Below, piece by piece: positions 1 through 11,103 of a DNA stretch of 11,103 bases. The position numbers were made by a program, and so were the translations under genes. The notes below the pieces were generated by a model. That model was not told the DNA's origin. It did no database searches and worked only from the letters and a program-made list of their open reading frames with translations. Numbering within the stretch: the stretch's first letter is position 1; the number at the start of each line of letters is the position of its first letter. The stretch is from Candidatus Thorarchaeota archaeon (GTDB lineage: Archaea; Asgardarchaeota; Thorarchaeia; Thorarchaeales; Thorarchaeaceae), in the NCBI GenBank assembly GCA_011364985.1, contig RDOC01000017.1:1-11103 (forward strand). Direction: 5' to 3'.

Positions 1-727
<727 letters not shown>

Positions 728-740
<13 letters not shown>

Positions 741-822
741 TAAAAGTTTGACTCGCGCAGTACCTAGAGTTGTCAAGGGTCGAAGTTGTAACAGACGGAG
801 CCTCCATCCTTTGTGAGCTATT
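728..822 (+). repeat. Direct repeat copy 1 (23S 3' tail plus trailer; attL-like)
   Basis: 749-795 TGACTCGCGCAGTACCTAGAGTTGTCAAGGGTCGAAGTTGTAACAGA matches 10268-10314 at 46/47 positions. The flanks GAGGCGTGCGGTC (728-740) and GCCTCCATC (800-808) also match copy 2. Confidence 0.93.
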
Positions 823-1341
823 ATTAATTGTCATAATGTAGTAATAACAATGATAGGATTTCCTCTAGATTGTTACGTTTCTCAGGATAGCGAAGATCTG
901 TAATCTCCTGAGATCGTTCAGGGTTTTCTCTACGTGTAATGAACATCTGTCGTGTTTCAAGGAAGATCGAATCCCGAATGAATACCTTGTTTTTCTAGCA
1001 TTTCTCAGACAGTCTTCAATTTCTAATTATAGATGTTAAAAGGCGATTGATTTGAGCTGCTCAGTTTTGCTGGGCTCTCTGTTTGTTTCATGAGCAAGCC
1101 CAAGAAATCCAAATAGGCTTTTCTGTTGTTCATGATATCAAAATGCACAATGTTTCTCTGCAGAATTGACTATTTAATGAGTAGTTCCATCCAAACACTC
1201 AGTTTGTCCAAGGCATACAACTTGTGGGGGGTGGTTGTTTAAGGCTCAAAGGTGTCATGGAACCAGAGTTCCAGTTTTGTGCCGCTAATTTCATGATAAC
1301 CAAATCAATGGTCTGCATTCCTAGAAAGAGAGCTATTGTTC

Positions 1342-2769
1342 TCATAGATCGAGCCAGTCTTCCTTCGTTCTATCTCCCGCCCAATCTTCCCATTCCTTTG
1401 TTTTTGGCATCGTGATAACGATGTCTTCTTTTCTTGGACTCTGATGATCAAGAATATATCTCCATGGCGTCGATCTTGTGGCATCTTCCACATGAAACTT
1501 CAGTTTAATTCTTCCCCGAGAATCTACCGCACACCTCAGTATTCTCAAGAACTTCTGAAACTTGCGTTTTGCATATTCGTAGACTTCCTCATGGTGCTTA
1601 TCTTTGTCGTCACCTCGGAAGATTACGATGAATTCCACTTCTTCAGTATTCAGTGTCAGGATTTCCAATCGTGCTTTCAGCACATTTTCTTGCCGAAACA
1701 TTGCAGGACGAGGTCTATCCCACTCCTGCATCTCATCCATAAGTACCAGTAGAAATGGGAAGTTCATGATAGTTATGTGGTAGATAAAGTCGCAGTTGTG
1801 AGAGGCTATTGCCCTCAGAATATTACTGCGAATAAGGAATTGACGTGCGTCTTCAGGCTTTAGGCTTTTGACCTTATCCAGTTGAAAATCTGTTTCCAAG
1901 AAATATACTAGACTTCTCATTAAGATTACACAACTGAGTACGCCATGGTCATACGAATCCAATGCAACCATGAACTTGTGGTAATACTTTGGCTGAATAT
2001 GAATTGCAAACTCGCCATTGATCCCAGTTGGCTGGATCGAGGCTGCTGTGACTGAAAGTACTTGACTGCAGATGTTCTGAAACATTGGAGACACTACATA
2101 CTCCAGTTCCTTAACTGACAGCTTGCCTATTTGCTCAAATGTACTACGAACAGCTCTATTCAAGTCGTACACATTTTCCAAGGCAAGGCCAAGATCATGA
2201 CATAGAGCAATGATACACCACATTGCTTCTTTTTCTGCAACTGAAATCTTGAAATCGAATTCCTTGTTCCCGAATTTAATCTTCACTTCCCCATACTTCG
2301 TATCTCCACAATCAATGATTTCGTATCCAATTGATGGTCGAGAGAATACCTTCCAGCCCAGAAGATACGTCCTTACCACATGCACAATATGGTCTCTGTT
2401 TCGCTCAATGATTACTGATATTGACTTCTCATAGCTGCCGATTCCTGTGAACACCTTGGCCAGTTTTTCAACTCCAAAAGCAAATGCATCATGATAGTCT
2501 CTCTCCCGGTAATCATTGTGTTTCAAGTACACTATCGCATCACGAAGGAGTGTTTCCCAGAGTCCTAGAACTGTGTCCACCTGTTCGCTCAATGAGATAT
2601 CAGAAGAGAGCTTCTCAATGGCCTTGTGGGTCCTGTTTTGTTTCTTTATTTTCTTTCGAATTTTGTCAGCAAAACCAATGAAAGCGGTCTTCATCGCTTG
2701 TTTCTTGAATTCCTCAATAAGTTTCTTGTCCTCTTCCACTTTCAAAAACACTGATACATCATCTGTCAT
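1342..2769 (-). CDS. HD-superfamily metal-dependent phosphohydrolase, HD-CE-like, ~475 aa
   Basis: Motifs RDHIVHVVRTYLLG, WCIIALCHDLG, DHGVLS, AIASHN and LLVLMDEMQEWDR. The start is placed at ATG 2769 (MTDD), which overlaps the radical SAM 3' end by 11 nt, rather than at the ORF-track start 2829. Confidence 0.8.
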   Translation of the reverse strand: MTDDVSVFLKVEEDKKLIEEFKKQAMKTAFIGFADKIRKKIKKQNRTHKAIEKLSSDISLSEQVDTVLGLWETLLRDAIVYLKHNDYRERDYHDAFAFGVEKLAKVFTGIGSYEKSISVIIERNRDHIVHVVRTYLLGWKVFSRPSIGYEIIDCGDTKYGEVKIKFGNKEFDFKISVAEKEAMWCIIALCHDLGLALENVYDLNRAVRSTFEQIGKLSVKELEYVVSPMFQNICSQVLSVTAASIQPTGINGEFAIHIQPKYYHKFMVALDSYDHGVLSCVILMRSLVYFLETDFQLDKVKSLKPEDARQFLIRSNILRAIASHNCDFIYHITIMNFPFLLVLMDEMQEWDRPRPAMFRQENVLKARLEILTLNTEEVEFIVIFRGDDKDKHHEEVYEYAKRKFQKFLRILRCAVDSRGRIKLKFHVEDATRSTPWRYILDHQSPRKEDIVITMPKTKEWEDWAGDRTKEDWLDL

Positions 2770-3772
2770 GTTGCAGCACCTCTGGCTTCTGACACGATAT
2801 GATCCTTGATGATAATTCCAAAGATTCATGCTCGATACGAATGATCTGTGCCGGGCATGAATCCAGCTTGCTCTCCAGCAGCCTGCTACGAATCTTCTTT
2901 CCGGTTTCTAGCCAGCCCTTGGTCCAGTCAGATTGCCAAGCTGTCTTCAAAGATACTTCCAGAGCATTAGGGGCGCCTTTGAGCAGTAAATCATCCTTAA
3001 GCGCCTCGCAAAGCGAGAGTCGACCGTCAGATAAGATTGTCATTCTGTTACCCAGTGAACAACCATCTCTAGACCCCAAATTTAGAAAAGAGAATGGGGT
3101 TCCTAGTCTCAGAATCGAGGTCTCTTTCTGAGAAAGGTTTTCAATTTTCCTAGTGAATTGTGTCAAATCTTTCTTGGTGAGTTCTAGGGAATCCTTGTTG
3201 AGCAGTCCACGTCCCTGCGGAACAAATCTAAGAAGACTAACTTGGCTCAGCCCCTCATTTAAGGCGAAGTCGATGACTTTGTCCAAATGCTCAATATTCG
3301 CCTTTAATGGAACAAAGTGAATTGAACAAGATCCTCCCATGTTCCGTATTCTTCTGAGCGCAGTTGTTGTGAATCTGAAGCTGCCTGGCGTCCTTGTTAA
3401 TCTATCATGAATTCCCATGGGACCATGTAAGCCAAAAACCACCTCATCAGCCAGATGTGCAGTTGTTTCTAAGGTTCTGTCATCAGGAATTGAGAGTCGG
3501 CTATTTTCTCCTTTGATAACTATACCAGATGTGTATACTGCCAGCTTCAGTCCTGCATTTCTTATATGCTCTAACAAACTAAGATAGCCTGGGTACTCGA
3601 GCGGCTCTCCACCGGACAAACAGATCTTACGGGCGCCAAGGGCGAGAGACTGGTCTATTAACTCCATCCACTGACAGGTTTCTACATGGTGAACGTAACT
3701 TGGGTGGGCATTTGAAGAACAGAAACTGCACTGAAGTGGGCACTTTCTAGTAAGTTCCAAAGTAATTTCCAT
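2759..3772 (-). CDS. Radical SAM enzyme with C-terminal Twitch/SPASM-like Cys motif
   Basis: CxxxCxxC (CPLQCSFC), SGGEPL, RFVPQGRG, C-terminal GCSLGNRMTILSDGRLSLC and DSCPAQ. An RBS (GGTGAGG) lies in the end of the upstream gene. Confidence 0.92.
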   Translation of the reverse strand: MEITLELTRKCPLQCSFCSSNAHPSYVHHVETCQWMELIDQSLALGARKICLSGGEPLEYPGYLSLLEHIRNAGLKLAVYTSGIVIKGENSRLSIPDDRTLETTAHLADEVVFGLHGPMGIHDRLTRTPGSFRFTTTALRRIRNMGGSCSIHFVPLKANIEHLDKVIDFALNEGLSQVSLLRFVPQGRGLLNKDSLELTKKDLTQFTRKIENLSQKETSILRLGTPFSFLNLGSRDGCSLGNRMTILSDGRLSLCEALKDDLLLKGAPNALEVSLKTAWQSDWTKGWLETGKKIRSRLLESKLDSCPAQIIRIEHESLELSSRIISCQKPEVLQHDR

Positions 3773-3774
3773 CT

Positions 3775-4401
3775 CTAGTCCTCACCTAATACTAAAGACA
3801 TTTCTTGCGTGTGAATAATGCGACTGAAGTAGGATGGATACATGCTACGTGATAGGGCACCGTTCCCGCCTCTTATTGCATATCCCGGATGGTAGGCTTT
3901 CACTATATGTGTACCGTTCTTTCGTATCAAGTTGTCCATTGTACGTTCCATTTCCCTCCCCTGAAGATGCTTCCATACGATTGTTCCCAGTGCGACGATG
4001 ATCTTCGGTCGTATCAAGTTCATTTCTTCCACTAGATACTCAGTGCAATTGATTAATTCTTTCTCTGTAGGAGGCCGATTTCGTCCCATGGAGTCTTGCG
4101 GATTGCATTTCACTATGTTCGTGATGTAAGCTGAAAGGCGTGGTTTCACCACATTTGGCTTTGCTTCTTTGGATATGCCGGAACTAATCAATGCCTCTTG
4201 CAGCAGCATTCCTGAAGGATCCCCTGTAAAAGGAACTCCCGTTTTATCAGCACCATTTCTTCCTGGCGCCAATCCGACAATTAGTATTCCGGCAGTAGGA
4301 TCTCCGTAACCAGATACAATTCTGGACCTAGTTTTCACGAGATTCGGGCATTTGACACAGTTGTTTCTCATGCACCTACTAAGCATCGCTTCATGCTTCA
4401 T
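3775..4401 (-). CDS. Uracil-DNA glycosylase, 4Fe-4S type (family 5/UdgB-like)
   Basis: CVKCPNL, GLAPGRNGADKTGVPFTGDPSG (family-5-like GLAP motif rather than family-4 GEAP), YITNIVKCNP, NRPPT..E..C, IVALG and YHPG. Confidence 0.9.
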   Translation of the reverse strand: MKHEAMLSRCMRNNCVKCPNLVKTRSRIVSGYGDPTAGILIVGLAPGRNGADKTGVPFTGDPSGMLLQEALISSGISKEAKPNVVKPRLSAYITNIVKCNPQDSMGRNRPPTEKELINCTEYLVEEMNLIRPKIIVALGTIVWKHLQGREMERTMDNLIRKNGTHIVKAYHPGYAIRGGNGALSRSMYPSYFSRIIHTQEMSLVLGED

Positions 4402-4728
4402 TTTCTACCATCCTTGCATGTTGACTAGAAGCCCAGGTGTCTAAAGTATTTGTCGTCCGAAAGGGCATATTTGGTGCTTATCTGAATGCCAAGTTGTCCT
4501 GTATCAGCGGTAGTTATCCAGAGCATAGCCTCCTCTGTATATTTGAGAACTGCTAAAAGTGCAATACCCATATCAGCACTGATCTATCATAATAATTGTC
4601 ACATCTAGGTTTTGTTCAATACTTGAGCAATTTAATAGAAAGAGTAATTAGTCTGTTCTTCCAACCATTCTAATTCGTACTTTAAACTGCGTGTGGTGCT
4701 TAGTGCTCTTGATGGGATGGGGCAGGAA
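4402..4728. promoter_or_regulatory. AT-rich divergent promoter region with candidate TATA box TTTAAA (4681-4686) for the + strand HD gene
   Basis: Lies between head-to-head genes. TTTAAA is ~30 nt upstream of ATG 4717 and ~42 nt upstream of ATG 4729. Confidence 0.4.
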
Positions 4729-6408
4729 ATGACTATTAGAGTGAAACAATTCAGAGACGTGATTCATGGAAACATTATAATTCCTGAACTACTGGTAGAT
4801 ACAGTCGTGGACCGTAGCATCTTCCAGCGAATGAGGTGGATAAACCAAACGTCAGCGACTTATTTTGTTTACCCTTCCCTGCAGGGATCCAGATTTCAGC
4901 ATAGTCTCGGAGCTGCACATGTAATTGGACTGGCTCTAGATTATCTTGTTACCAACACGGAACTGCACACAGAGAAACGATTTAACCCTGACGAATTGCA
5001 TGATCTCTGTTTTCTTCTGCGTGCAATTCGCCCTTGGGCTCAATTTGGAGCGCTTACGCACGACATAGGGCACAACGCATTTTCGCATGTTTTTGAAGAA
5101 TCGGTACATGACTTAGTCTACGTCCTTGGACAGGAAGTTAAGGGGTTCAAGGAGAGTGGTCAGAAACTCCATGAAGACTATACCGGAATAATCACGAGCG
5201 CCATGTTAGGCGATGAAAGCATTTGCACTGCTCTTAGAGAACTTTTTCTTAAAACAACAGATGCACTCGGAATTTCACCTCGGGAGGGAAGTCCTGCGGA
5301 AAGGATTCTAGAGTTCATAAAGAAATGTACGAAAGAAGAGCTGGGACGATTGGTCTGGCATACTGTCCGAAATCCTAGAGGCAGCATTATAGAAATCCCC
5401 AAAAAACTTGAGGATCGAAAAGTAAGGGATCTTATTGAAAACACCAATACAATTGTTTGTTCCCTTCTTTCTGGCCCACTCGACGTTGACAGAGCCGATT
5501 ACATTCTTAGGGATGCATATCTATCTGGCATGAACGTTCACTTTGATCTTGATAGATATGCTGCAGTATTAGTATTAATTAAGGGTTCAGATGGTAAGGT
5601 TCGCGTAGGAGTACTAGAAAAAGGTGTTTCTCTTCTTGAGTCTTTTATGATCGCACGTTTTCATATGCACAGAGAAGTTTATGGGCACAAGCTCTCTATG
5701 GTCTATAATGGCATTCTCAGAAGGATAATGACACTTCTGATGGCTAAAACTGCTGGTGATTTTAAGATTGATCTGCCTCCGTTAGACATGCCACTTATTG
5801 TTGATAGAGCTGGGCAACAGCCAACTCTAGATGATATTGAGCCATACTTCTTGAAACTCACAGATGTCCAGATACTCCACAGAATCACTGAGATGTATAG
5901 AAGCGGCGTTCCAAATCCTCTGGGAATCCTTGTGAAGGCTTTTGTTGAGCGAAAACACTACAGACCTGAGGAAGCCAATGTTCCTCCAAAAGGAATATTC
6001 CTACGGTATGATACCAAACGCATGGTTTCAGGTGCGACAAGCAACTATTTCGAGGAATATGAGGAGAAGGTAGACCAAGTTATGTGTCCACCGAAATACA
6101 TTCGAGTCAGCGAAGAGAGAGAAGTGCTCCATTGTGCTAAACACAAACAGGATCTAATATATTGGAAACATATGTTTGGAACATCATCAAGTGACATATC
6201 ACAAGTCCCAGTTTATCAGAAGTCCGGAATGGTTGTGAAGGTGGACCATATTACGGGCCTTCTACCTCTGCTGGAAGCTTCGAGATCAGTGAGCATTCTT
6301 CTACTTGTTGCAAAATATGCTCCCAGTGCTAACTTCAAGCCAACGGACGAATCCTGGATTGCTAAACTCGTAGAAACCATGACTAGCATCACTGCAGGTG
6401 CAGCATAG
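4729..6408 (+). CDS. SAMHD1/COG1078-type HD dNTP triphosphohydrolase (complete catalytic motif set)
   Basis: FRDVIHG, VDRSIFQRMRWINQ, YPSLQGSRFQHSLG, THDIGHNAFSH, KLHED, DVDRADYILRD and ARFHMHREVYGHK. The start could be 4729, 4717 (ATG) or 4693 (GTG). Confidence 0.9.
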   Translation: MTIRVKQFRDVIHGNIIIPELLVDTVVDRSIFQRMRWINQTSATYFVYPSLQGSRFQHSLGAAHVIGLALDYLVTNTELHTEKRFNPDELHDLCFLLRAIRPWAQFGALTHDIGHNAFSHVFEESVHDLVYVLGQEVKGFKESGQKLHEDYTGIITSAMLGDESICTALRELFLKTTDALGISPREGSPAERILEFIKKCTKEELGRLVWHTVRNPRGSIIEIPKKLEDRKVRDLIENTNTIVCSLLSGPLDVDRADYILRDAYLSGMNVHFDLDRYAAVLVLIKGSDGKVRVGVLEKGVSLLESFMIARFHMHREVYGHKLSMVYNGILRRIMTLLMAKTAGDFKIDLPPLDMPLIVDRAGQQPTLDDIEPYFLKLTDVQILHRITEMYRSGVPNPLGILVKAFVERKHYRPEEANVPPKGIFLRYDTKRMVSGATSNYFEEYEEKVDQVMCPPKYIRVSEEREVLHCAKHKQDLIYWKHMFGTSSSDISQVPVYQKSGMVVKVDHITGLLPLLEASRSVSILLLVAKYAPSANFKPTDESWIAKLVETMTSITAGAA

Positions 6409-6416
6409 GTGTTGTG

Positions 6417-6442
6417 TCTAGAGCCTTGTACAAAGGGCTAGA
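6417..6442. terminator. Imperfect palindrome between convergent genes, possible terminator hairpin
   Basis: TCTAGAGCCTTGT|ACAAAGGGCTAGA (10/13 positions complementary) in the 52-nt gap between the stops at 6408 and 6461. Confidence 0.25.
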
Positions 6443-6460
6443 ATCCCCAAACCAAATTGG

Positions 6461-6727
6461 TTATTCTTCAAAGGTTGGCGAACAAGGTTTCACTAACCCC
6501 TTCTCCAAGGTAATCTTGCCTTCGTTCTTGAGACGCTGCAGTTCCTTCTCAAAGCGATCATAAGACATGACTCCATCGACAACAATAGGACATGATGCTC
6601 CTGCGAGCCGATAGTTGCCATTTAATCCAACAGCACATCGGCGCATCTCATCAAGTTTCATTCCTTTTCTATTCTCTGCTAGAAGCATTTGAATGAGATC
6701 TCGAGAACCGACAATATTGAAGGTCAT
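6461..6727 (-). CDS. Small hypothetical protein, possible winged helix-turn-helix (88 aa)
   Basis: ATG start. The pattern LIQMLL...GMKLDEM...MSYDRFEKELQRLKNEGKITLEKGLVKP resembles a recognition helix followed by a beta wing. Confidence 0.55.
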   Translation of the reverse strand: MTFNIVGSRDLIQMLLAENRKGMKLDEMRRCAVGLNGNYRLAGASCPIVVDGVMSYDRFEKELQRLKNEGKITLEKGLVKPCSPTFEE

Positions 6728-7298
6728 CTATTTCATCTCGGGTTCCTGTTTTGATTTGTGCCTATTAATCCCTACGGAACTATGTGAAATTCGCGCCAAT
6801 TGAAGTGCACATTGGCATCTAGACAACAGGCAGTAATACTGGGTGCACAATGTTTCAAATATCTGTTTCTTTTCGAAACTACTCCTGCTTTGCTCATCTG
6901 AGCAGCTCATAGACTGAAGCTCAGTCATGTTGGTTCTAATGTACTTGTCAAGGGTCAAATTCGTAACCAACCGAGCTTCCGCTCTTAGTGGGTCGATCTC
7001 CCTTTTGGACTAACCAGAAACTTGTTAATAATTCCAAAAACATGTAATCCTATCACTGGATGCAGTGAGAACCACTACTCATTTTAGAAGAATTGACTCC
7101 TACAAGAGCATAAGAACGCGCCCCACGCCCCAATGGGAATACAATCGTTGCTCGTTAAAGGATATAAAGAAGCTTCATCAGCGATGGAAAGTCATCCTTG
7201 CTCTTTCAGTAACAGCAGAGAACCCTACTATCCCATCCCGCCAGATATGATATGATGTACTTCTCAAAATGATTGTTCTTCATCCACCGATGCAACTA

Positions 7299-8708
7299 TC
7301 ATCTCTGATGGCATGTCACTAGAGATGTCATGACACCGTGTAGCCTCTGTGTCATTGATTCCACCTTTTTGCTTGGTTGTTTACGTTTCCAGGCAACTGC
7401 CTTATCATCGACTCTAAACCCAACAATTACATTCGGCAGTGCTTGCAGGGTTTTCTGAGGAACTAAAGCATGCGCCAAGTAACTAACCTCTCTTAAATCT
7501 ACAAGGCCCTCTTCACGGGGTAGTATAACAGGCATCAAATAATCAGGCAAAGAACTTCGGAGTCTTGGCATCACATCTACAATGACCTCTCCTATTCCCA
7601 GGTCAACTGCATCAGCGAGTTCTTGCTCAAGCTTCAGCAACGTATCAGGGTGAAGAATTAGATGGGAAATCTCACTTCTAGCTTCATAACTCATATTTGA
7701 ATAGCCATAGCTAAGCGTGTCACTCACATAATAGGGACAACCGTTTATTATATCCCCAGCAATACGGCGAGAATTGTCGATAGAACAGGAAGCCAAATCT
7801 TGGAGAAGTCCATCATCAGTTCTCAACCAAACCGCCTGAAGCAGGGGTTTGTACTCGTCTCTAGCATAGAACAATGCTCTTGAAGCCATTGAATGCAGAA
7901 TTCTTACGAGTCTATGAGAGTAGAGCCGCCGATAAAGAATTGCCTCCGATGCGAACATTGATTCAACTGATGGTACTCCATCAAAGGATATTGCAAGTAT
8001 ACGAGGCGTTTCAGATCCATGAAATCCTTCGACATCTCTTACTCTTAAGTTACTCATGATGCCCTCTAGGTCATAAAGCGCGAAAGGAATGGTGTTGTAA
8101 GCATCTCTGATAATGTAATCCATTCTATCTACATCTACTTCACTGCAGATTAGATTTGCAATGTACATCTTACTTGGCTCGGGATGGTTGCCAGTTATTA
8201 TCTGGGAGAGAAGCTGTGGAGCCAATCCACGGCTTTCATACTTCTCCAACAATTCGACAGCTCGCGGGATGGATCTGTGACCTGCAACTTCTAATTCAAT
8301 CTCTCCACATAGCATCATCTTTGCAACATGTTTGTCTGTAAAGGATTTTCTTTCGCCAAGCAGGTCGAGGAATCTATCAACAGCATATCCTAATGCGGAA
8401 TGTCCTATGTCATGTATTAGAGCCGCAATACCTACCTGTTTGATATCATCATGTGTGATGGAGTATCCTGTTTTAAGGTCAAACTGAAGCCTATCCATAA
8501 TTACCTTGGTAAGGTAATTCGTGCCAATTGAATGTTCAAATCGTGTGTGTTTCGCATGGGGATACACGATGTCCGCTACTGAGAGTTGGCGAATTCTTCG
8601 AAGACGTTCTAGCTCTGCACAATGAATGATATCCATCTCCAATGCATCAAGACAGATATTAGCTTTGTAGACAGGGTCATAGAACACAGGCCGACCGTAA
8701 TGCGCCAT
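7299..8708 (-). CDS. Second SAMHD1/COG1078-type HD protein with atypical active site
   Basis: FYDPVY, LERLRRIRQLSVADIVYPHAKHTRFEHSIG, IHDIGHSALGY, DVDRMDYIIRDAY and LYRRLYSHR, plus an archaeal-type C-terminal domain (LEQELADAV..EVIVDV). The start is probably ATG 8708 behind a GGTGAT RBS; alternatives are GTG 8717 or 8720. Confidence 0.88.
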   Translation of the reverse strand: MAHYGRPVFYDPVYKANICLDALEMDIIHCAELERLRRIRQLSVADIVYPHAKHTRFEHSIGTNYLTKVIMDRLQFDLKTGYSITHDDIKQVGIAALIHDIGHSALGYAVDRFLDLLGERKSFTDKHVAKMMLCGEIELEVAGHRSIPRAVELLEKYESRGLAPQLLSQIITGNHPEPSKMYIANLICSEVDVDRMDYIIRDAYNTIPFALYDLEGIMSNLRVRDVEGFHGSETPRILAISFDGVPSVESMFASEAILYRRLYSHRLVRILHSMASRALFYARDEYKPLLQAVWLRTDDGLLQDLASCSIDNSRRIAGDIINGCPYYVSDTLSYGYSNMSYEARSEISHLILHPDTLLKLEQELADAVDLGIGEVIVDVMPRLRSSLPDYLMPVILPREEGLVDLREVSYLAHALVPQKTLQALPNVIVGFRVDDKAVAWKRKQPSKKVESMTQRLHGVMTSLVTCHQR

Positions 8709-8713
8709 CGCTA

Positions 8714-9262
8714 TCACCACATACTCCCACTTTGCTGTGCATTAATATGTGATGAACCCAGTAGGCATTCTGCTGTTTCGCGAAACAATGTTTGAACGTT
8801 TTCATTCTTCTTTGCACTTGTGAGAATGTGGAGGAATCTCTTAGGATATGACTTAATGATTAGAGCTTCAAGGCCACTTGCGAATGAAACTAATGGCTTG
8901 ATGTCAGTTTTGTTACCAACCAGAATGAAGCACCTTATCCCAAGAAGTGACGATAATTCTGAAGTAAAATAGTGCCCAGCTGCTGTTGCTGTTGCTTCAC
9001 GAGACACATCATAGACGAGAATTAGAGCGTGAGCGTTAGAGTAATAGCTAGATCTAAGAGGATCATAGCGAGACTGACCAGCCAAGTCCCAGACAACCAG
9101 CCTGACATCTACTCCCCTTATTTCAATATTGAGGACGTAGATACTGCATCCAACTGTAGGCCAGTAATCTTCCTCAAACTTCCCGGTTTCGAACCTATGA
9201 CATAGTGCGGTCTTGCCTACTGCTCCAGGCCCACATACCACAACCTTGAACATCCTGTCCAT
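8714..9262 (-). CDS. Ras-superfamily (Rab-like) small GTPase
   Basis: G1 GPGAVGKT, G2 YWPTVG, G3 WDLAGQ, G4 NKTD, G5 TSAK, plus the Rab-like LRSSYY and LVYDVS segments. No C-terminal prenylation Cys. A GGAGG RBS lies upstream. Confidence 0.95.
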   Translation of the reverse strand: MDRMFKVVVCGPGAVGKTALCHRFETGKFEEDYWPTVGCSIYVLNIEIRGVDVRLVVWDLAGQSRYDPLRSSYYSNAHALILVYDVSREATATAAGHYFTSELSSLLGIRCFILVGNKTDIKPLVSFASGLEALIIKSYPKRFLHILTSAKKNENVQTLFRETAECLLGSSHINAQQSGSMW

Positions 9263-9264
9263 GC

Positions 9265-9834
9265 TTAGTCGTCCTCCAGAAATGATTCAATGATTCCTTT
9301 CAGTGCTCTCTCGGTCAATTCCTGTCCTGTGTAGTCAACTTCAATTTGGCTTAGCACATTCAACTTCACCTCCTCTGAGTAGAATTGAAGATGTCTTTGG
9401 ATGTTTTGCTTCAAGATCAGCAAAACCGGAAGCAGAAGGTTGATTGATTCTACCAGTTTTTCGTACTCCTCATGCTCCTCTGCGTAGTAATGAAGTGTCT
9501 GAATAAGGTGCGAGCAATTGGTCATTAGCTGTCTCGTAGTTGGATGGTGGATATACACGAAAATCACTCCTGAATGTCCATAGAATGCATCCGGGTTGAT
9601 CTTCAAATCACCGTACTTGACCTTGCCTTTGAGTTTCAGATATGAGTTTAATTTAACAAGCGTTTCGAGAAGTAGACTATAGTAAGGCATCAGTCCGTCA
9701 GCTGTTGCCTTTAGGGCCAGTGACTTTCGGCGTTTTCTCGTGTCAATGATATAATTAATGAAAAGCCCCAGGGCTGTGACTGCAACGGATATAATGGAAA
9801 TCATTGTTGCCACACCGATAGGCTCGACCTGCAA
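9265..9834 (-). CDS. Hypothetical single-pass membrane protein (N-terminal TM anchor plus helical cytoplasmic domain)
   Basis: Hydrophobic IGVATMISIISVAVTALGLFINYII is followed by basic RKRRK (positive-inside rule). TTG start behind GGAGTGTGA. The stop is 2 nt before the GTPase ATG. Confidence 0.75.
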   Translation of the reverse strand: MQVEPIGVATMISIISVAVTALGLFINYIIDTRKRRKSLALKATADGLMPYYSLLLETLVKLNSYLKLKGKVKYGDLKINPDAFYGHSGVIFVYIHHPTTRQLMTNCSHLIQTLHYYAEEHEEYEKLVESINLLLPVLLILKQNIQRHLQFYSEEVKLNVLSQIEVDYTGQELTERALKGIIESFLEDD

Positions 9835-10239
9835 TCAAATATCACACTCCAATAGCAAAACATCGACATTCTCATTAGGCTTCTTTATCTATCTTGTTGA
9901 GAATCACAATAGCCGATTTTACTCTGATTTTCTCATTCCTGTTGGCGCCTCTTGGAGTACGCAGAAAATGCATTGCATCACCACTTGCCTGCAAAATTGG
10001 CCAAATCCTGCAACCGCATAGTTCTGTTTACTTCTTTGTAGTACTTCAAAAACGAACACAACGTATTAAGGATGTATCATAACATCGGTTCTGCACCAGT
10101 CTTCAAAATCGACAGATTCCGAAGAGTTCCTTGATACTCTCTAGTCATATTCGTGAGGTATATCTCATCAAAACTCAATGGGAAAAGCTTGTTCTCCAAA
10201 TTCAGTTGAAAATGTAAATCGGTCATTGCTCAGACGACA

Positions 10240-10341
10240 GAGGCGTGTGATCCAAGACTCGGGAGTATGACTCGCGCAGTACCTAGTGTTGTCAAGGGTC
10301 GAAGTTGTAACAGATAATGCCTCCATCTTTTGCAAGTTGTT
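10240..10341 (+). repeat. Direct repeat copy 2 (displaced 23S 3' tail plus trailer; attR-like)
   Basis: GAGGCGTGTGATC (10240-10252) matches 728-740 at 11/13. A spacer 7 nt longer than in copy 1 follows, then 10268-10314 (46/47 identical to 749-795) and GCCTCCATC. Confidence 0.92.
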
Positions 10342-10397
10342 TTCGTTCTTCATTGTGATTGTAACTAAGAGAAAATCTCTTCTGGTTTTCTTCTTTT

Positions 10398-10817
10398 CTA
10401 AGGGCTATGCCTAGACTGGCGGGACCAGTACACAATCCCACAAAAGATGGGGATGAGAAGCAGAGGAACAAAGAGTATGAGATGTTCGGTTCCCCCATGG
10501 GTCGAGTCAACCACACAGACAATCAGTCCGTACAAACTCATCAGGATAGAGCCTCCTATATGAATATTCCAAGTGTTATATTCCTCATCGAACCAAAGAC
10601 TCAAGCCGGTGGGCATAAGAACTATAGCAGCAATGAACATGGAAACAACTGATATGGCGTATCCGGGTAGATACTGGAAAAGGGCAACAATCATCATGAA
10701 CACGCCGTCAGCAAAGAGGATAACAGCAACAATCGCTGTCAATCTGTCTGTCGACCGCTTCCTCCGACCTGCTGATTTCAAGTATCCACAAGACTCCTTC
10801 CAGAATTGGTCAAGCAT
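10398..10817 (-). CDS. Hypothetical membrane protein, ~4 TM helices (outside the island)
   Basis: Four hydrophobic stretches (LTAIVAVILFADGVFMMIVALF; YAISVVSMFIAAIVLMPTGLSLW; IHIGGSILMSLYGLIVCVV; LILFVPLLLIPIFCGIVYW) with basic flanks. The start is uncertain. Confidence 0.7.
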   Translation of the reverse strand: MLDQFWKESCGYLKSAGRRKRSTDRLTAIVAVILFADGVFMMIVALFQYLPGYAISVVSMFIAAIVLMPTGLSLWFDEEYNTWNIHIGGSILMSLYGLIVCVVDSTHGGTEHLILFVPLLLIPIFCGIVYWSRQSRHSP

Positions 10818-11103
10818 ACTTCAATGATATCCTTTTTGTTTGAAGAGCCTTCTCCTAGACGCATAGAAGGAGATCAAGTAATAGTATCTCTAAACCTTCA
10901 TCGGGCAAGTTCTCTTCCTAGTGCCTTCCCCCTTTATCGTTCTTTTTTCCTAACCCAAGAATCAACGGCATGCCACACACTGGATGAGAGTTGTGTTGTT
11001 CTCGAAGGAGGTGTTGCCTAAGTCGTGCCTGCCATTGCTTCTAATTGTTGGCTCAAATCTCCCACAAAGAGGATGAGCTGAAGCAACTCTATATCGACGT
11101 GCA

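Follow-up and report, generated by a model that had tools for sequence, protein, structure and literature searches.

An array of accessory genes bounded by copies of the 23S rRNA tail and trailer in a Thorarchaeota genome

We analyzed a stretch of 11,103 bp (the window) from a metagenome-assembled genome (MAG) of a Candidatus Thorarchaeota archaeon and identified an array of accessory genes that lies directly behind the 23S rRNA gene and is, in all likelihood, bounded by copies of the tail and trailer of this gene. The window is the whole of contig C8, whose start falls within the 23S rRNA gene; the MAG, designated G000, consists of 22 contigs (1.70 Mb, 74% complete) and contains a single assembled 23S rRNA gene. 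The repeat unit comprises the last ~40 nt of the 23S rRNA and the whole ~75-100-nt 3' strand of the pre-23S processing stem. Instead of the one 9.5-kb island between two copies that had originally been predicted from the window alone, there are at least four blocks bounded by five copies, which span ~16 kb and extend into the next contig. Among the other Asgard genomes compared (labeled G002-G036; congeners or members of the same family unless stated otherwise), 15 relatives show a repeat-gene-repeat arrangement with at least two copies on one contig. As the probable origin of these arrays, held with less confidence than their description, we favor additive growth of a cassette array by repeated Campbell-type recombination in the trailer homology, probably via host homologous recombination.

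Repeat copies and the processing-stem arm

The 23S rRNA gene ends at position 741 of the window, where the alignment reaches the last position of the Rfam model (2987 of 2987, RF02540). The 5' part and the leader of the same gene form the end of contig C20, of which positions 65964-66365 match model positions 1-388. On the other side, the plus strand of C8 continues into the minus strand of C19, because window positions 11027-11103 are the exact reverse complement of the C19 end (69998-70074), a k-mer-sized overlap of 77 nt. On the sequence joined in this way, five copies of the unit, all in the 23S orientation, were found at one locus (joined positions 695-838, 6899-7016, 10211-10375, 12882-12979 and 16083-16232), and a genome-wide profile search of the G000 assembly gave no copies beyond these five. 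The 23S gene part, the stem strand and the copies, R1 to R5, are listed below (window coordinates unless C19 is named; HMM, profile hidden Markov model).

1-741, plus strand: 3' part of the 23S rRNA gene (RF02540, 384.7 bits, model positions 2441-2987 of 2987)
746-819, plus strand: 3' strand of the 23S processing stem, pairing with the leader at C20 65851-65956 (duplex z-score -8.2 against shuffled sequences)
695-838, plus strand: R1, the native 23S tail and trailer, that is, the repeat unit (profile match, 121.8 bits)
6899-7016, plus strand: R2, degenerate, with its 5' part gone and a core at 6945-6990 (32.7 bits, HMM 34-147)
10211-10375, plus strand: R3, nearly full-length, with a diverged 23S tail and an intact trailer (84.6 bits, HMM 5-162)
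C19 68219-68122, minus strand of C19 and thus 23S sense: R4 (profile search)
C19 65018-64869, minus strand of C19 and thus 23S sense: R5 (profile search)

From R1 to R5 the profile scores are 122, 33, 85, 42 and 93 bits, and orthologs of R1 adjoin the 23S rRNA gene in relatives. The pair R1 and R3 had been noticed in the original prediction: window positions 745-822 recur at 10264-10341 with 86% identity over 78 nt at an offset of 9,519, and the near-identical core at 749-795 (46 of 47 positions), which lies within the trailer, has a blastn E-value of 1.6e-18 against the whole 1.7-Mb assembly. This repeat is confirmed, with three more copies to be added to it. Its interpretation as a duplicate of the 23S 3' end and trailer is likewise supported. 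R3 aligns to the relatives' profile from ~40 nt inside the 23S tail. Compared along their length, R1 and R3 show three zones resembling an attL/attR pair: a diverged left part, the 46/47 identical center and a moderately diverged right part. The 23S-tail octamer GAGGCGTG is found again at 10240-10247, at an offset of 9,511 instead of 9,519 because R3 has an 8-nt insert. The comparison gives no indication of the crossover that had been proposed near this octamer; it is at 749-795, within the trailer, that the two copies are nearly identical. Nor is the repeat a dispersed element, as its copies are multiple but confined to one locus.

The identity of the trailer part was established by pairing it with the leader. 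When the leader from C20 is cofolded with the tail and trailer from C8, a single long stem forms between the two molecules (-122.8 and -100.9 kcal/mol), in which the helix of the 23S ends is followed by 7 bp, a 3-nt bulge in the leader, 4 bp, a 3-nt bulge in the trailer and 10 bp. This order corresponds to a predicted 3-4-3 bulge-helix-bulge (BHB) motif, with the leader bulge at C20 65938-65940, the helix formed by window positions 762-765 with C20 65937-65934, and the trailer bulge at 766-768 (AGA). Stems with such motifs are the standard pre-rRNA substrate of the archaeal splicing endonuclease (PMC8339473), and the trailer half of the predicted BHB contained in the unit would be the site cut by this enzyme. 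The trailer had been read as one strand of a processing stem from the start, with the suggestion to compare 749-795 with the 23S leader; the cofold, the pair table and the duplex z-score all bear this out, the complementarity covering 746-819. A leader-trailer duplex of the same architecture (-102 kcal/mol) is predicted in G024, which belongs to another genus.

The five copies differ in how well they retain this pairing. The duplex of R1 with the leader has an energy of -84.3 kcal/mol, compared with -44.9 +/- 4.8 kcal/mol for shuffled sequences, and those of R3, R5, R4 and R2 have -90.5, -75.7, -60.0 and -52.2 kcal/mol, respectively; genomic control windows give -43 +/- 7 kcal/mol. Thus R3 (z-score -8.2) and R5 are predicted to keep the full leader pairing, including the BHB half, while R2 pairs at chance level (z-score -1.1) and R4 weakly, both being decayed. 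No leader-like partner repeats were found bracketing the cassettes. The unit does not fold on itself: three copies, taken as single-stranded DNA on both strands, have z-scores from +1.5 to -1.0, and the consensus self-fold is weak (-9.9 kcal/mol).

Other identities of the unit were considered and rejected. Minus-strand open reading frames (ORFs) at 511-834, 6728-6970 and 10168-10353 overlap copies, but a coding role is contradicted by indels that break the frame (a 1-nt insert in copy 5, leading to an early stop, and 6 nt missing in copy 2), and the tblastn matches of the ORF at 511-834 merely mirror rRNA conservation. Rfam and tRNA searches gave no match to a tRNA, a tmRNA or a known RNA family inside the unit.

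The rRNA genes of G000 are not adjacent on its contigs. No 16S gene precedes the 23S rRNA gene in the C20 region examined (54000-66365); the upstream genes encode an RNase PH-like exosome subunit, a nucleotidyltransferase, a WD40 protein and metabolic functions. The 16S gene is located on contig C4 and extends past the end of that contig.

Arrays in related genomes and cargo of the blocks

A query consisting of tail and trailer detected the unit next to the 23S rRNA gene in 22 of 24 genomes of the same family, many of which possess further co-oriented copies downstream. A profile made from 34 copies was then applied to the corresponding regions of relatives; it identified 44 copies in 14 family loci, all of them in the 23S sense. 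The most regular array is that of G012, with the layout R1-F4-R2-F7-R3-F9-R4-F6-R5-F10-R6 and one gene per interval, and this array is present at 99.9% identity in two independent metagenome contigs. The layouts in G016, G009, G004 and G005 resemble it, and the single-gene cassettes of G012, G016, G009 and G004 occur in both gene orientations relative to the copies. It had been suggested that related MAGs be searched for other cargo flanked by these repeats, and this was indeed observed in the congeners: the cargo varies from genome to genome, and a GNAT gene forms the distal flank in several of them. Recurrent Pfam families among 90 ORFs from the loci of 13 relatives are GNAT, BPL_N, UbiA, nitroreductase, DinB, SnoaL, MarR and cupin. 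In four more distant Asgard genomes (G025, G026, G030 and G036), the 20 kb that follow the 23S rRNA gene contain no second copy of that genome's tail and trailer; therefore, the arrays are lineage-specific and represent neither a generic property of trailers nor a by-product of the method.

Pairwise comparisons show that the genomes differ by whole cassettes, that these changes fall at repeats, and that individual cassettes are found in different contexts. The segment 912-2297 of G016 corresponds to 1278-2656 of G004 (85% identity) from repeat to repeat, with unrelated neighbors. The F6 gene likewise lies between repeats in three genomes, each time next to another neighbor. G003 and G012 are 95% identical through R1-F4-R2, after which G003 has an extra cassette of 1,005 bp that starts at the R2 end and ends in a remnant copy still holding a piece of the 23S tail; this places one insertion or deletion at R2 rather than R1. 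In G005, an additional, 74%-diverged F10 cassette occupies the 23S-proximal position. Finally, two copies of the 23S tail and trailer enclose an insert of 5.6 kb in G017.

The spare copies, i.e. those not adjoining the 23S rRNA gene, are conserved unevenly. Their trailer has consensus values of 0.7-0.9, nearly as in native copies, versus 0.3-0.5 for the 23S tail. Some carry the stem variant of another species (G009_R3 is of the G005 type and G005_R2 of the G003/G012 type), as expected for between-species exchange. The 5' limits of spare copies vary, with HMM starts from 2 to 114 and no sharp common breakpoint, many copies in relatives are truncated, and in many a T-rich stretch follows the stem arm. 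Among adjacent pairs of spare copies across the arrays, quality falls with distance in 11 and rises in 6.

Three of the relatives' loci require comment. The single "contig" of G003 is a scaffold with gaps at 13590-13689 and 9020-9119 (locus L027, G003:C1); a gap of 100 N cuts the 23S rRNA gene ~290 nt from its 3' end and the other lies in the array, so that G003 does not provide a closed reference here. The 23S rRNA gene of G018 (C46, locus L030, 12054-12384), from another genus, contains a group I intron (Rfam RF00028, 114 bits). A solitary copy consisting of ~66 nt of 23S tail and 36 nt of trailer was detected in an 80-kb contig of G011 (C8, ~65.3 kb; locus L054, 5264-5367) as a blastn match, 79% identical, to the G024 tail and trailer. 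It has no upstream 23S rRNA gene and no other copy within ~5 kb upstream or 14 kb downstream, and represents either the distal end of a long array or a copy that has been relocated; such copies are present on four more contigs of G011.

In G000, the blocks contain 2-5 genes and are 2.5-6 kb each, with most genes on the minus strand. Their contents are as follows:

839-6898: block 1, with a 495-aa protein, a radical SAM enzyme, a family-4 uracil-DNA glycosylase (UDG), an HD protein and small ORFs (Pfam, NCBIfam, PADLOC)
1342-2829, minus strand: 495-aa protein with no family match
2759-3772, minus strand: radical SAM enzyme
3775-4401, minus strand: family-4 UDG
4693-6408, plus strand: protein with HD and HD_assoc_2 domains
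6461-6970, minus strand: small ORFs
7017-10210: block 2, a minus-strand operon for a 189-aa protein, a Ras-family GTPase and an HD protein (Pfam)
9265-9834, minus strand: 189-aa protein with an N-terminal hydrophobic stretch
8714-9262, minus strand: Ras-family small GTPase, 182 aa
7299-8720, minus strand: protein with HD and HD_assoc_2 domains and a weak dGTPase-like PADLOC match
10376-11103: start of block 3, with a 139-aa membrane protein (10398-10817, minus strand), continuing on C19
C19: remainder of block 3, with a 450-aa protein containing HhH and DUF6973 domains, followed by R4, block 4 and R5
C19, between R4 and R5: block 4, with three unknown proteins

Past R5 are a GNAT gene and the gene for ribosomal protein S26e, which form the conserved flank. 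The gene at 10398-10817, originally taken as a "4-TM gene" of the chromosomal flank, is thus cargo of block 3. The GC content of the blocks is 42.6-44.4% (42.8% in block 1), compared with 45.5 +/- 2.0% for the genome. The minus-strand operon at 7299-9834, encoding the HD protein, the GTPase and the 189-aa protein, may be a defense or signaling module. In block 1, the combination of radical SAM enzyme and UDG in the minus-strand operon at 1342-4401 recalls the "DNA modification/repair radical SAM + UdgX" pair, the UDG being UdgX-like, and the radical SAM protein has weak PADLOC matches to viperin. The contig break between C8 and C19 falls within block 3, away from any repeat, and would fit strain variation there.

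We searched these loci for genes that could move the blocks. No recombinase was found in the G000 blocks, in the sequence flanking them or in the 12-kb region upstream of the 23S rRNA gene, none among the ORFs of the window, C19 or the G017 island, and no recurrent recombinase family among the 90 array ORFs from relatives. Tyrosine recombinases (PF00589) have no match in G000; they match in 11 of 31 family genomes, never on array contigs, and have no match in the array-bearing G002, G010 and G017, the last of which is 94% complete. The absence of an integrase noted at the outset is therefore upheld by scans of the window and of the C19 ORFs and by the PF00589 search of G000. Serine recombinases (PF00239) were found in none of four congeners. 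The only recombinase match in G000 is a serine recombinase with a Resolvase domain, in a 209-aa frame at C21:46998-47390 (plus strand) and unlinked to the array; LAGLIDADG_3 (PF14528) and Cas1 (PF01867) have no match in this genome. The 450-aa protein of block 3 was considered as an array-linked recombinase and rejected, since it is unrelated to the 450-aa protein of the G003/G012 arrays and has no homolog in 16 congeners. As for viral or plasmid carriers, no IMG/VR contig matches the unit motif; eight metagenome contigs with the unit are chromosomal arrays, several of them sources of MAGs already compared.

Formation of the arrays and alternative explanations

Under the additive recombination that we favor, a circle carrying one unit would recombine with a unit already in place through one Campbell-type crossover located in the trailer homology, with the 23S end and stem, conserved across species, providing a shared docking sequence. 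The insertion would add a block and leave direct repeats in one orientation. The 23S-adjacent copy would stay functional with its distal part coming from the incomer, and the displaced former trailer would turn into a spare copy further downstream. A crossover between two units would excise a block together with a hybrid unit, and the excised circle could re-enter the same array or that of a relative. Among these steps, we infer the circular intermediates, the crossover within the trailer and homologous recombination as the catalyst, the last being favored as the likeliest because no dedicated recombinase was seen. Crossovers in the trailer would renew trailers, but never tails, via the functional position next to the 23S rRNA gene, where the incoming trailer comes under selection. 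This would explain why spare copies keep the trailer while their tail decays, and also why the pairing of R3 with the leader is no weaker than that of R1. With this asymmetry explained, no function of the spare copies need be assumed. The idea of integration or recombination at the rRNA 3' end, already part of the original prediction, fits the pattern observed.

Four points weigh against this explanation. The genome is only 74% complete, so the absence of a recombinase gene is unproven. The multi-gene blocks of G000 (2.5-6 kb) are unlike the single-gene cassettes of G012 and G016. Copy quality in G000 is not monotonic with distance from the 23S rRNA gene, and across arrays the age gradient that strictly proximal insertion should produce is no more than a weak trend. 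Finally, the conservation of spare trailers could reflect selection on a function of their own, or their use as sites for an unrecognised recombinase. An origin at the RNA level, with spare copies truncated at the BHB cut, was also considered; profile starts cluster near HMM 72-76, yet degenerate similarity continues upstream without a sharp truncation, and this origin is not supported.

The main rival to homologous recombination is an unrecognised dedicated recombinase, belonging to a new family or encoded elsewhere, that acts in trans, recognizes the trailer DNA and inserts cassettes next to the 23S rRNA gene in an integron-like manner. We regard it as unlikely, although it draws on several features of the relatives. 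In G012, G016, G009 and G004, a repeat stands at nearly every gene boundary between single-gene cassettes. The cargo of the arrays (GNAT, DinB, SnoaL, cupin, nitroreductase, MarR) is of chromosomal-integron type, and strongly conserved blocks are common to the spare copies. Copy quality mostly falls with distance in G012, G002, G003, G005 and G009, and new cassettes adjoin the 23S rRNA gene in G003/G012 (F4) and G005 (F10a). However, no recombinase lies in or beside any array examined, tyrosine recombinases are without match in 20 of the 31 family genomes, including three with arrays (G002, G010 and G017), and serine recombinases were found in none of the four congeners searched. The unit has no self-fold (the z-scores of +1.5 to -1.0 given above), the variable 5' ends of the spare copies (HMM 2 to 114) define no sharp shared breakpoint, and the indel between G003 and G012 is at R2, not R1. 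A further reading, which combines capture with expression, has a lower probability still and is offered as speculation: the array could be an rRNA-anchored analogue of an integron, in which an unrecognised enzyme, or the rRNA-processing or transcription machinery, makes stem-arm DNA a preferred recombination site, and cassettes in the 23S sense are read through from the very strong rRNA promoter and released once a spare BHB arm is engaged by the single leader or by local structure.

Three other explanations were weighed. Spare copies may themselves be functional on the 23S strand, where they could terminate transcription, insulate against rRNA read-through or provide spare BHB arms for processing read-through transcripts, with genes accumulating between them for other reasons. 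Conservation of the trailer at a nearly native level beside a decaying tail, the predicted full leader pairing of R3 and R5 with the BHB half included, the uniform 23S sense and the T-rich stretch past the stem arm in many copies would fit such a role; yet the pairing of R2 and R4 is by now weak or at chance level, many copies in relatives are truncated, cassette genes may point either way with respect to the copies, leader-like partners are absent, and the recombination model accounts for the asymmetry between tail and trailer too. We consider this improbable. Much less probable is a single decayed element of 9.5 kb (728-10341) that entered the 23S 3' end in one event and later lost its integrase: what stands of it is the repeat identity, the variable cargo and the lack of an integrase, while its unity and its two-copy boundary do not. 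The attL/attR-like zones of R1 and R3 and the slightly lowered GC content of the blocks agree with it, but a third copy lies inside and two more beyond, the gene on its right-hand side is further cargo, and none of the 15 relatives with multi-copy arrays has an integrase in them. Least probable of all is an artefact of assembly or binning, for instance chimerism of the contig, or rRNA flanks that were collapsed or mis-joined. In its favor, the window is a short contig of a MAG and starts within the 23S rRNA gene, two contigs share the array between them and the single scaffold of G003 has N gaps at its 23S rRNA gene; against this, 15 other assemblies show the same architecture on one contig each, as do independent metagenome contigs, the trailer on C8 fits the leader on C20 of this MAG, and the flank genes are syntenic with those of congeners.

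Relation to known systems and significance

Among stable-RNA genes, those for tRNA and tmRNA are known to capture genes at their ends, a process that normally involves integrases. The closest described systems are additive flexible genomic islands with tRNA 3'-end repeats, and tandem accretion at tRNA and tmRNA genes is related to them. An example is fGI-2 of 'Ca. Methylopumilus', an additive island in which repeats of the final 20 bp of tRNA-Lys recur (PMC10872708). Like such islands, the array stands directly 3' of a stable-RNA gene (23S end at 741, first block from 839), its blocks are delimited by co-oriented gene-end repeats, its size and cargo vary among close relatives, and a large part of the genes carried have unknown or accessory functions. 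Unlike them, it targets the end of an rRNA gene, its repeat has 100-150 nt that are mainly transcribed spacer instead of ~20 nt of mature RNA, and it contains no integrase or other mobile-element gene.

Integrons, among them those of archaea and attC clusters lacking an integrase (Ghaly et al. 2022, PMC9668308), resemble the arrays in their small cassettes, which in relatives such as G012 and G016 hold single genes, in a recurring site in one orientation, in similar cargo and in hints of proximal insertion. The arrays differ in having no IntI, no attI/attC sites and no self-complementary hairpin (an attC-like hairpin is ruled out by the self-fold z-scores and the weak consensus fold), in carrying cassette genes in both orientations, and in that their recurring site is a copy of a host RNA-processing element. 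With elements of the SSV/pNOB8 type they have in common the direct repeats of the target gene's 3' end that flank an insert (R1/R3 in G000, and G017), but no integrase of their own, intact or split, is found in the array. HeimM2 of 'Ca. Heimdallarchaeum' is described as a single 8-kb mobile element located between the single 16S rRNA gene and a tRNA-Arg gene, with a homing-endonuclease-like gene (Wu et al. 2022, PMC8813620). It too is foreign DNA of an Asgard archaeon right beside a single-copy rRNA gene, whereas here an array, rather than one element, lies beside the 23S rather than the 16S rRNA gene, and PF14528 is without match in G000. With respect to archaeal pre-rRNA stems, R1 is predicted to be exactly such a stem arm, with extended leader-trailer complementarity and a 3-4-3 BHB; known stems have one trailer per rRNA gene, unlike the four extra, partnerless trailers found here across 16 kb of protein-coding DNA.

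Full-text literature searches found no paper describing arrays of rRNA-trailer repeats. What is new is an additive stable-RNA-end island that is anchored at an rRNA gene, built on a processing-stem arm and devoid of an integrase. Its docking sequence is the end of the rRNA gene together with the spacer arm required for processing of that rRNA, which suggests that an element essential for RNA processing can at the same time act as a "landing pad" across species. The arrays also suggest a recombination-based route by which Asgard archaea acquire and shuffle accessory genes, including that for a eukaryote-like Ras-family GTPase. Should the speculative integron analogue hold true, the rRNA operon would serve these archaea as both capture site and expression platform for acquired genes. 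Since the flanks of rRNA genes usually break metagenome assemblies and get ignored, they may hide much of the flexible genome of these organisms, for which the 23S trailer repeat provides a practical marker of variable regions in Asgard MAGs.

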